Below, in pieces: positions 1,973 through 11,419 of a stretch of DNA of 32,000 nt; position 1 is the first letter of the stretch, and each line of letters begins with the position of its first letter. The notes beneath the pieces are model-generated. The model saw only the letters and a list, made by a program, of their open reading frames with translations, made no database searches and was not told the DNA's origin. Source of the stretch: an uncultured Alphaproteobacteria bacterium (lineage in GTDB: Bacteria > Pseudomonadota > Alphaproteobacteria > Rs-D84); NCBI GenBank assembly GCA_963931495.1, contig OZ007020.1, positions 660,001-692,000 on the forward strand, given 5' to 3'. The translations under genes and the position numbers were made by a program.

Positions 1973-2049
1973 GCACCCGTGGCTTAACTGGATAGAGCAT
2001 CGCCCTCCGAAGGCGGGGATTGCGCGTTCGAATCGCGCCGGGTGCGCCA
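1973..2049 (+). tRNA. tRNA-Arg (anticodon CCG)
   Basis: A 77-nt cloverleaf: acceptor GCACCCG/CGGGTGC, anticodon stem TCGCC/GGCGG with loop CTCCGAA (anticodon CCG), T-arm GCGCG-TTCGAAT-CGCGC, and an encoded CCA. Confidence 0.92.
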
Positions 2050-2056
2050 GAAATTC

Positions 2057-2078
2057 AACCGCCGCATGGCGGTTTTTT
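2057..2078 (+). terminator. Intrinsic terminator after tRNA-Arg
   Basis: AACCGCC-GCAT-GGCGGTT hairpin followed by TTTT. Confidence 0.7.
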
Positions 2079-2203
2079 AATTTATGTTACGCAACCCGCG
2101 ATTTGGACGCGCACGCGTTTGACAACGAGTAGTTGAAAACAAACGCAGTGCAGTTTGAAACGTAACGAATGCCCCACAGCCGACACGACCGTGTCGTGCG
2201 AGG

Positions 2204-2257
2204 GAATCGCGCCGGGTGCGCCAGAAATTCAACCGCCGCGTGGCGGTTTTTTAATTT
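2204..2257 (+). repeat. Second copy of a 54-bp direct repeat (first copy 2030..2083) made of the tRNA-Arg 3' end (T-arm 3' half, acceptor 3' strand, CCA) plus its terminator
   Basis: GAATCGCGCCGGGTGCGCCAGAAATTCAACCGCCGC(A/G)TGGCGGTTTTTTAATTT occurs at both positions, offset by 174 bp. The single mismatch (2065 a versus 2239 g) is in the terminator loop. No matching tRNA 5' half precedes the second copy. Confidence 0.9.
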
Positions 2258-2487
2258 TAATATTTACGCTTTGTATTATGTCGCACAGCCAGCATCACCA
2301 TGCCATGATATGCGATTTTTTCCAGTACTGATTCTGGAATTAATCGTTTGCCACTTTCGTATCGGGTCAAATCACGACGTGATATCCCCATAATTCGGGA
2401 CATTTCATGACGTTTTATATGCGCACATTTACGTGCACGACGTATTATTTGACCATAGTATGCATTATCAACCAATACAACAGACAT
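2257..2487 (-). CDS. Small XRE/Cro-type helix-turn-helix protein, 76 aa (paralog A)
   Basis: YGQIIRRARKCAHIKRHEMSRIMGISRRDLTRYESGKRLIPESVLEKIAY fits the HTH_3 pattern. The ORF is intact in both repeat copies, with 1 synonymous and 3 conservative changes. The RBS-like run GGGGGGAATAAACA precedes the ATG at 2487. Confidence 0.7.
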   Translation of the reverse strand: MSVVLVDNAYYGQIIRRARKCAHIKRHEMSRIMGISRRDLTRYESGKRLIPESVLEKIAYHGMVMLAVRHNTKRKY

Positions 2488-2667
2488 TGTTTATTCCCCC
2501 CATATGTTTTGTTAAACAAAATACCGCCGTGATTAAGGGCGGTTGGAGGCTCAAAGCTATTAACAGTAATAGTGTTGCTTATTTGTATATTCGCAACCCT
2601 CCAACCCATGTTGGAGTGTTTCTGTTAAGAGGTTTTGAGACCCCGCATCGGTAATCGGCCAATGCAA
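2488..2667 (-). promoter_or_regulatory. Structured leader or small RNA upstream of HTH paralog A, with mutually exclusive helices and an intrinsic terminator (attenuator-like)
   Basis: On the minus-strand RNA, CUCCAAC (2616-2610) or CCUCCAACC (2549-2541) can each pair with GGUUGGAGG (2606-2598). The second of these shares 3 nt with terminator arm ACCGCC (2543-2538), which pairs with GGCGGU (2528-2523) and is followed by AUUUUGUUU. The TSS is inferred from the promoter at 2700-2673. Confidence 0.45.
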
Positions 2668-2672
2668 GGCAT

Positions 2673-2700
2673 ATTATATCATATCTGAAACAGAATGCAA
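2673..2700 (-). promoter_or_regulatory. Sigma70-type promoter (TTGCAT-N16-TATAAT) driving the leader and HTH paralog A
   Basis: On the minus strand TTGCAT lies at 2700-2695 and TATAAT at 2678-2673. Homology between the two repeat copies starts essentially at the predicted TSS. Confidence 0.5.
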
Positions 2701-2777
2701 ACAATTGCAGATTTTTTATTGTTTTGATTTATAATTTTTGTTTACACTGGTGGTGTGTGAAATTATGGGACGCATAA

Positions 2778-3245
2778 ATGAAAGTCTGGCTAGTACTGTT
2801 TACCGTGGTGTCATTGGTCGCATGTAACAGTGTGTATTATGAACCGAATTCTTTGGATGTAACACAAACGTTTTATTCTGATCGTGGCGGTTTTTCAATG
2901 AAACGTGGCATCAAAGAAAAAATGCTGGCACGCGGGTATAATGTTGTTGTTGGGACGGCGGAATCCAGTCGTGGAATTGCCACAGACACAGATAACATAG
3001 AAATAGATTCAGCAGTTATCCCACATGACGTGCGCTATATTGTAAAGGTCAGTGAACGTCGCGAAAAATTTAATCCGATATGGTGCGCGTTTAATGGATT
3101 TTGGTGGTGGAATTTTAATGTTTCTGTGGCGGATCAGAAAACGGGGCAAGAAATAATGTCGTGGCGCGGACGTGGTTGCGAAGACAGTTCGCTGCGAACC
3201 CTGGATGATATTCTTGATGATATGGAGGTAAAAAATGAACAATGA
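2778..3245 (+). CDS. Putative lipoprotein (155 aa)
   Basis: The signal peptide ends in the lipobox L-V-A-C (MKVWLVLFTVVSLVAC). I recognised no family. Confidence 0.6.
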   Translation: MKVWLVLFTVVSLVACNSVYYEPNSLDVTQTFYSDRGGFSMKRGIKEKMLARGYNVVVGTAESSRGIATDTDNIEIDSAVIPHDVRYIVKVSERREKFNPIWCAFNGFWWWNFNVSVADQKTGQEIMSWRGRGCEDSSLRTLDDILDDMEVKNEQ

Positions 3246-10793: not shown

Positions 10794-10870
10794 GGGTTAG
10801 TAGCTCAGTTGGTTAGAGCGGAGCGCTCATAACGCTTTGGTCGTGGGTTCAAGTCCTACCTAACCCACCA
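10794..10870 (+). tRNA. tRNA with anticodon CAT: elongator tRNA-Met, or tRNA-Ile2 if lysidine-modified
   Basis: A 77-nt cloverleaf: acceptor GGGTTAG/CTAACCC with a paired 1:72 position (so not an initiator), anticodon stem GAGCG/CGCTT with loop CTCATAA, T-arm GTGGG-TTCAAGT-CCTAC, and an encoded CCA. Confidence 0.9.
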
Positions 10871-10874
10871 AGAT

Positions 10875-10903
10875 AAAAACGGGGATTATACCCCGTTTTT
10901 TTT
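10875..10903. terminator. Bidirectional intrinsic terminator shared by the tRNA and HTH paralog B
   Basis: A5-CGGGG-ATTATA-CCCCG-T8. The TAA of the minus-strand HTH gene (10902-10904) overlaps the T-tract. Confidence 0.8.
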
Positions 10904-11132
10904 AATGTTTACGCTTTGTATTATGTCGTGCAGCCAGCATCACCATGCCATGATATGCGATTTTTTCCAATACTGATTCTGGAATTAATCGTTTGCCACT
11001 TTCGTATCGGGTCAAATCACGACGTGATATCCCCATAATTCGGGACATTTCATGACGTTTTATATGCGCACATTTACGTGCACGACGTATTATTTGACCA
11101 TAGTATGAATTATCAACCAATACAACAGACAT
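10902..11132 (-). CDS. Small XRE/Cro-type helix-turn-helix protein, 76 aa (paralog B)
   Basis: It differs from paralog A at 3 of 76 residues (A9S, V67A, Y76H). Confidence 0.7.
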   Translation of the reverse strand: MSVVLVDNSYYGQIIRRARKCAHIKRHEMSRIMGISRRDLTRYESGKRLIPESVLEKIAYHGMVMLAARHNTKRKH

Positions 11133-11312
11133 TGTTTATTTCCCCCATATGTTTTGTTAAACAAAATACCGCCGTGATTAAGGGCGGTTGGAGGCTAGAA
11201 ACTATTCAAACGGATAGTGTTGCTTATTTGTATATTCGCAACCCTCCAACCCATGTTGGAGTGTTTCTGTTAAGAGGTTTTGAGACCCCGCATCGGTAAT
11301 CAGCCAATGCAA
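11133..11312 (-). promoter_or_regulatory. Structured leader or small RNA, copy B (same helices as 2488..2667, different hairpin loop)
   Basis: All four attenuator segments and the terminator are identical to copy A. The hairpin at 11202-11217 has a different loop sequence. Confidence 0.45.
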
Positions 11313-11419
11313 GGCGTATTGTTGCATATATTCAGCAAAAATTCCAGTAATAAAAAATTATTCTTTTTTTGTAAATAATGTGGTTGCCCTGGGGGCGATT
11401 TTTTTGCTAATGTCGTGGC

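Follow-up and report, generated by a model that had tools for sequence, protein, structure and literature searches.

The window analyzed here, a stretch of 32,000 nt (positions 660,001 to 692,000 of contig OZ007020.1), carries two copies, A and B, of a compact unit of which a third copy, C, lies elsewhere in the same genome. The repeat is probably a three-copy paralogous unit that arose recently in the lineage of this species and consists of a partly variable promoter of the sigma-70 type, a leader RNA of ~185 nt working as a switch, with the terminator fold as its default state, and a gene for a single-domain DNA-binding regulator of the XRE/Cro type. This degree of confidence applies to the explanation as a whole, that is, to the leader switch, the insertions, the order of the copies and the lack of a tRNA link taken together. 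What is new is the triplicated leader-plus-HTH unit. With it, the tempting link between tRNA genes and a regulator module is removed, and a testable picture of an XRE regulator amplified three-fold under a switch leader takes its place.

Copies and product of the repeated unit

The genome, that of a small gut alphaproteobacterium, comprises 958,618 bp in one contig with a G+C content of 42.7% and encodes a two-piece alphaproteobacterial tmRNA. Alignment of positions 2257-2675 with 10902-11320 of the window reproduced what the first-pass annotation had reported: over 419 bp, ungapped and at an offset of 8645, the two differ at exactly 16 positions. Identity between A and B ends about 2 bases past the stop codon (2257), and at the promoter end there are only partial matches within ~10 bases past 2675, around the -10 box; the stop codon and the -10 region mark the ends of the copies. 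The same annotation had described a compact leader and XRE gene unit placed twice, of which the repeated placement held and the number did not, as a third copy was found at positions 109,115-109,533 of the genome, with 9 differences from copy A (98% identity) and 17 from copy B. Copy C sits between two secreted-protein genes and gyrA, upstream of the latter, and has no tRNA gene within 7.8 kb. No further paralogue of the 76-aa protein was found by tblastn in this genome. In each of the three copies, which are 96-98% identical, leader and HTH gene were copied as one piece, and the unit is flanked by housekeeping genes.

As had been concluded before, A and B are not the ends of a composite element, the 8.2 kb between them being ordinary housekeeping DNA that includes the two-piece tmRNA, a PIF1-like helicase and dnaE. 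The promoters upstream of A and B differ in a consensus scan, in agreement with the earlier reading; A and C have in common a TG-extended -10 box, not shared by B, together with a 26-bp terminator hairpin after the stop codon, and for copy B the scan gave no clear promoter, just a TGn-AACAAT-like -10. Comparison of the filled site with the empty site of a sister genome (G042) revealed no signs of a transposable element (IS or MITE), the junction lying at a terminator T-run with no duplicated target. Elsewhere in the genome, at 528,132-528,482 and 380,248-380,496, lie two Y1 (IS200-type) transposase genes whose reading frames are broken by stop codons. The coordinates of the features in the window are collected in Table 1.

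Table 1. Features of the window around copies A and B of the repeated unit (window coordinates).
Feature	Position	Strand	Basis or detail
tRNA-Arg (anticodon CCG)	1973..2049	+	ARAGORN; Rfam tRNA, 61 bits
Direct repeat copy 1: last 20 nt of tRNA-Arg and terminator hairpin (2057-2074)	2030..2083	+	54 bp, 98% identical to 2204-2257; terminator scan
Direct repeat copy 2: displaced tRNA-Arg 3' end (T-loop onward) and terminator hairpin (2231-2248)	2204..2257	+	
Copy A HTH gene, 76 aa, XRE/Cro-type	2257..2487	-	Stop codon flush with terminator T-run; Pfam, AlphaFold2, Foldseek
Copy A leader RNA	2488..2672	-	MFE; R1, 107.7 bits; pair counts
Copy A promoter-like site (TTTGCA, 17 nt, TATAAT, preceded by TG)	2673..2701	-	-35 at 2701-2696, -10 at 2678-2673
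tRNA-Met (anticodon CAT)	10794..10870	+	ARAGORN, Rfam
Terminator hairpin between tRNA-Met and copy B stop codon	10875..10900	+	Terminator scan
Copy B HTH gene, 76 aa, 3 aa different from A	10902..11132	-	ORF
Copy B leader RNA	11133..11317	-	Alignment with A; R1, 103.9 bits

The ORFs of A and B are both intact, with 76 codons each. Their products match Pfam HTH_3 (PF01381) with 27.5-27.8 bits against a cut-off of 23, and the AlphaFold2 model (pLDDT 93.4) places helices at residues 8-21, 26-33, 37-45 and 52-74, a four-helix HTH with a long C-terminal helix. All top Foldseek matches were XRE proteins (probability 1.0, TM 0.6-0.7), with E-values of just 5e-3 to 1e-1. A full HMMER scan of 1.84 billion representatives found 212 relatives, among them full-length proteins of 70-81 aa with 35-50% identity and the N-terminal motif M-x-x-[VIL]-L-[VI]-D. 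A word-indexed protein search returned the protein's own cluster alone, and back-translated scans gave no match in species genomes and, in metagenome contigs, no close copy, the single match there being a distant relative with 39% identity over 41 residues. The only hit of tblastn against plasmids was an unrelated XRE protein of Salinibacter. Beside the three copies, no partner gene of the toxin, restriction-modification or anti-CRISPR kind was found.

The leader RNA and its family

The leader folds with -61.9 kcal/mol (z = -4.6 against shuffled sequence). In copy A it consists of a 5' hairpin, box 1 (CUCCAAC, 2616-2610), box 2 (GGUUGGAGG, 2606-2598), two covarying inner hairpins, box 3 (CCUCCAACC, 2549-2541) and an internal terminator (~2543-2513), with box 3 overlapping the 5' arm of a hairpin that has a U-run ~45 nt before the start codon. 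Pairing of box 2 with box 1 leaves box 3 free, so that the intrinsic terminator can form; pairing of box 2 with box 3 closes a three-way core like that of sRNA-Xcc1 and removes the 5' arm of the terminator. The terminator state is the minimum free energy fold (-54.5 kcal/mol), the antiterminator state (-46.7 kcal/mol) being costlier by 7.8 kcal/mol. The terminator fold would be the default, in which most transcripts would stop as a short RNA, and transcription would continue into the HTH gene once a signal freed box 2; the transcript start, the attenuation and this read-through are all predicted.

In an alignment of 22 leaders, from which a covariance model of the leader core (R1) was built, the inner hairpins carry compensatory changes in 4 of 5 and 4 of 6 pairs (8/11), and their pairing holds in 88-95% of the cells, compared to 27-62% in slid controls. 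Each of the 22 sequences can form both box pairings (97-99.5% of cells paired), and since the boxes are almost invariant, covariation neither supports nor contradicts the pairing of the box helices. Two other readings of this region were rejected. A 54-aa ORF in copy A (2445-2609, starting from the loop between box 1 and box 2) was considered as a leader peptide and has no counterpart of at least 40 aa in copy B, and a reading of the boxes as an attC-like element of integrons failed on their order and spacing.

A DNA search found matches of 70-82% to the leader, and not to the ORF, in 21 of 24 genomes of the same genus, with up to 13 matches per genome. R1 detects 15 copies in the genome under study; the three that precede the 76-aa HTH gene score 104-108 bits, high by construction as they helped to build the model, and the 12 others 26-99 bits. 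The genes that follow these leaders encode the 76-aa HTH protein (three times), a 61-aa HTH-like protein (once) and, for most of the others, signal-peptide or Cys-rich proteins; among the remaining leaders, one has no detected ORF after it and two precede proteins without an evident signal peptide. In sister species the same mix of small HTH or secreted-protein genes follows the leader. By sequence, then, the leader is a member of a large multi-copy, three-box family in a genus of small-genome gut Alphaproteobacteria, for which the sole match in Rfam was a sub-threshold one, of the core from box 2 to box 3 to sRNA-Xcc1. In the 22-sequence alignment, leaders that precede the 76-aa HTH gene and its relatives share a 5' hairpin of the type GCAUUGG...CCRRUGY, and the leaders of secreted-protein genes have other 5' hairpins and an extra inserted hairpin; in the genome under study, the leader before a 496-aa protein has a near-variant of the former hairpin. 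The same switch would control about ten genes for secreted, Cys-rich proteins in this near-minimal genome.

tRNA genes and terminators at the insertion sites

The stop codons of A and B do touch the T-runs of tRNA terminators, as the first-pass annotation had pointed out, A abutting the second copy of the tRNA-Arg(CCG) terminator and B the terminator of tRNA-Met(CAT). The 5' flank of the hairpin next to copy B resembles the flank of the tRNA-Met terminator in sister genomes. At the locus that corresponds to that of copy A, G042 likewise carries the tRNA-Arg 3' end in duplicate (73 bp, 97%), with a spacer of ~120 bp and without the module; it aligns at 81% to positions 1972-2252 of the window, and its second terminator directly precedes the lipoprotein gene. 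As the same duplication is present there without the module, the duplicated tRNA-Arg 3' end is older than module A, and this comparison identifies the second copy of the direct repeat as ancestral to the insertion of module A.

Several further observations were made in this neighborhood. The two copies of the tRNA-Arg terminator are 97-98% identical within each genome and different between the genome under study and G042, a within-genome likeness that suggests concerted evolution of an old att-like remnant. Positions 1971-2185 of the window, comprising tRNA-Arg(CCG) and ~136 bp downstream, are 69% similar to tRNA-Arg(ACG) and its flank at 741,959-742,173 of the genome, a likeness that could come from paralogy of the flanks or from what is left of related integrated elements. 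The ORF that follows module A (2778-3245) is a conserved lipoprotein-like gene; its alignment with G042 indicates the ATG at 2790 as the likely start, with a signal peptide ending in Cys.

The association of the module with tRNA genes, which had been proposed together with the statement that copies at non-tRNA locations would speak against it, did not survive the search for further copies, copy C being located at just such a site. Moreover, 18 related leader loci of sister species, 6 of them with an orthologous HTH gene, all lack a tRNA gene within 1.5 kb. In the genome under study, tRNA-flanked intergenic regions hold 4 of the 15 leaders, A and B being convergent with the tRNA gene and the other two divergent from it; with such regions making up 14-17% of all intergenic regions (binomial P ~0.24 for 4/15), this excess is not significant. 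The leaders at 656,537-656,649 (+) and 234,375-234,493 (-) lie ~150 bp from tRNA-Ser(CGA) and tRNA-Met in divergent orientation and precede the genes of a secreted protein and a 305-aa protein.

The adjacency to tRNA genes thus looks like a local accident and not a rule. It would reflect permissive, terminator-containing intergenic space, with no functional or integrase-mediated link to the tRNAs. The two independent insertions of A and B both end exactly at the T-run of a tRNA terminator, for which the chance, estimated from the frequency of such intergenic regions, is ~0.03, so that terminators, though not necessarily tRNAs, may be weakly preferred. Microhomology to the A-run that follows the stop codon, or selection for a ready-made terminator, may account for these endpoints. 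In most of the orthologous HTH modules of sister species the stop codon is flush with a terminator of A-run, hairpin and T-run, showing that a stop codon that touches a terminator is usual in this family.

History of the copies and comparison with known systems

Among the three copies, the site patterns (12 with B alone, 5 with C alone and 4 with A alone) fit the tree ((A,C),B). The hairpin of copy C has the same CACG loop as the second tRNA-Arg terminator and is native to the tRNA-Arg locus; as copy C carries the terminator hairpin of A, it was copied from locus A. In sister genomes, tRNA-Arg(CCG) and the lipoprotein gene are adjacent in 16 of 27 loci, with a leader between them in none, and comparison with G042 delimits the insertion of module A to ~450 bp, from 2257/8 to ~2705. 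Of 29 sister loci, 22 have the helicase gene beside tRNA-Met, and no leader is present in any part of the loci examined. These neighborhoods, kept without the module, imply that A and B are lineage-specific insertions, and the filled and empty sites provide exact insertion boundaries for the study of how such units spread.

Upstream of dnaE, a leader is found in the genome under study and in one sister genome (G003) alone, 28 other sister genomes having nothing there. The leader of G003 (78%, the best match anywhere) has the place and orientation of copy B and precedes a different small HTH gene, with no tRNA. These two genomes also share a conserved terminator-like hairpin immediately upstream of dnaE (11382-11400). 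The genes that precede dnaE in several sister genomes have their matches ~53-58 kb away in the genome under study, which places copy B at a synteny break. The orthologous HTH modules of sister species occupy other, non-syntenic sites, which are empty here. In the sequence of events that we favor, copy A would have inserted between the pre-existing duplicated tRNA-Arg terminator and the lipoprotein gene, copy C would have come from A, taking the tRNA-Arg terminator hairpin along, and copy B would sit beside the tRNA-Met terminator at the synteny break in front of dnaE. As the repeated DNA of A and B has no terminator of its own, these copies rely on the one they abut. A bolder version, which we regard as speculative and rather improbable, makes the unit, from promoter to stop codon, a mobile cassette without a transposase that would spread inside genomes and from one of these genomes to another, landing on the A/T-tracts of intrinsic terminators already there by microhomology to the A-run behind its stop codon, and makes the XRE protein a hub regulator of the leader-controlled secreted-protein genes; were it true, the unit would be an independent analogue of the Brt/Trp system of Bartonella.

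Recent duplication was weighed against other origins of the repeat. It is possible, though on the unlikely side, that the copies are older paralogues at fixed sites kept near-identical through gene conversion, in which case the edges of the repeat would be those of the ancestral unit. Residues 9 (A/S), 68 (V/A) and 76 (Y/H) of the 76-aa protein each have two states, and the 15 strain variants listed for it show 7 of the 8 possible combinations, the four-gamete test failing for every pair of these sites; the number of combinations indicates that recombination or conversion between copies or strains is active, and such a process may contribute to the high identity between the copies. Gene conversion would also fit the same-family leader with a different small HTH gene that G003 has at the dnaE site of copy B, and the tRNA-Arg terminator pair, which is likewise homogenized within genomes and different between them. 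However, the nearest sister genomes lack the module at the A and B sites, the presence in copy C of the hairpin that flanks A is a signature of duplication and not of the conversion of an older unit, and the site patterns within the genome fit a simple tree with no need for mosaicism. Gene conversion is, in any case, compatible with a recent duplication, the two being not exclusive.

Much less probable is an origin of the modules as remnants of integrative elements targeted to tRNA genes through a tyrosine integrase. The duplication of the tRNA-Arg 3' end starts in the T-loop, like classical att sites, two of the three copies abut tRNA genes, and the genome encodes, besides two tyrosine recombinases of 315-317 aa that from their size are presumably XerC/D, two of integrase size (392 and 411 aa, at 212,623 and 886,616). 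Yet module A lies outside the repeat pair and not between the repeats, and G042 has the same tRNA-Arg duplication with its 120-bp spacer and no module. Copies B and C are without a duplicated tRNA fragment, C is without a nearby tRNA, and the related loci of sister species are likewise free of tRNA genes (0/18 within 1.5 kb). No integrase gene lies near any copy, the recombinase genes being elsewhere in the genome. As for an assembly artefact, in the form of a collapsed or misjoined repeat, we give it almost no credence: 9-17 substitutions separate the copies, the flanks of each are unique, and the genome is a single contig; moreover, all three protein variants are present on a 968,759-bp contig of another assembly and on 13-48 contigs each. 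The differences, the flanks and the second assembly together make such an artefact unlikely.

Compared with regulators of solved structure (C.BclI, C.AhdI, HipB, Aca2 and ImmR), the product of the repeated unit shares the four-helix HTH_3 fold and a length of ~70-80 aa (profile E = 1e-9 to 1e-3), with no specific match to a subfamily; it has an N-terminal motif of its own and a long C-terminal helix. As regards the RNA, the part of the leader that runs from box 2 to box 3 can be aligned end to end, through the closing stem and two hairpins, with the model of sRNA-Xcc1 (RF02221), at 34.2 bits (E = 3e-4 for 551 bases searched), which does not reach the Rfam gathering score of 53 bits. Both RNAs are multi-copy. 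According to the account of Chen et al. 2011 given in PMC12189769, sRNA-Xcc1 is a free-standing, trans-acting sRNA of Gammaproteobacteria, found in integron cassettes and genomic islands of Xanthomonas. In contrast, the core described here is embedded in a leader, with an anti-antiterminator box upstream, a terminator downstream and a gene directly after it.

The Brt/Trp system, which controls the BadA adhesin of Bartonella, likewise has an alphaproteobacterial host. In that genus, the RNAs Brt1-9 precede the XRE regulators Trp1-9, the RNA being abundant and the HTH gene poorly transcribed (Tu et al. 2016, PMC5387305), and a role in termination or as a riboswitch has been proposed for Brt, which was reported as specific to Bartonella (PMC5387305). 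The architecture is alike, with a multi-copy structured RNA of ~190-200 nt immediately upstream of an XRE HTH gene (PMC5387305). Membership of the present unit in the Brt/Trp family is nonetheless highly improbable. When R1 was run against 18 Bartonella loci with 39 Brt copies, fetched with the published probe sequence, nothing better than E = 0.47 was obtained, and a Trp-like protein of B. vinsonii (123 aa) shows 27% identity to the 76-aa protein over a 48-residue HTH. The tblastn search against plasmids gave no Bartonella match, though a Brt-bearing plasmid of B. grahamii was expected there (PMC5387305, Table 1). Trp proteins have 108-152 aa, as opposed to the 76 aa found here, and only a generic HTH is common to both. 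Brt/Trp is the closest published architecture, and at the sequence level the likeness is one of design by analogy and not of homology. If switch and regulator formed one circuit, the three-copy unit would represent a second, independently evolved instance of the Brt/Trp design, and a handle on the control of surface proteins in uncultured gut bacteria.
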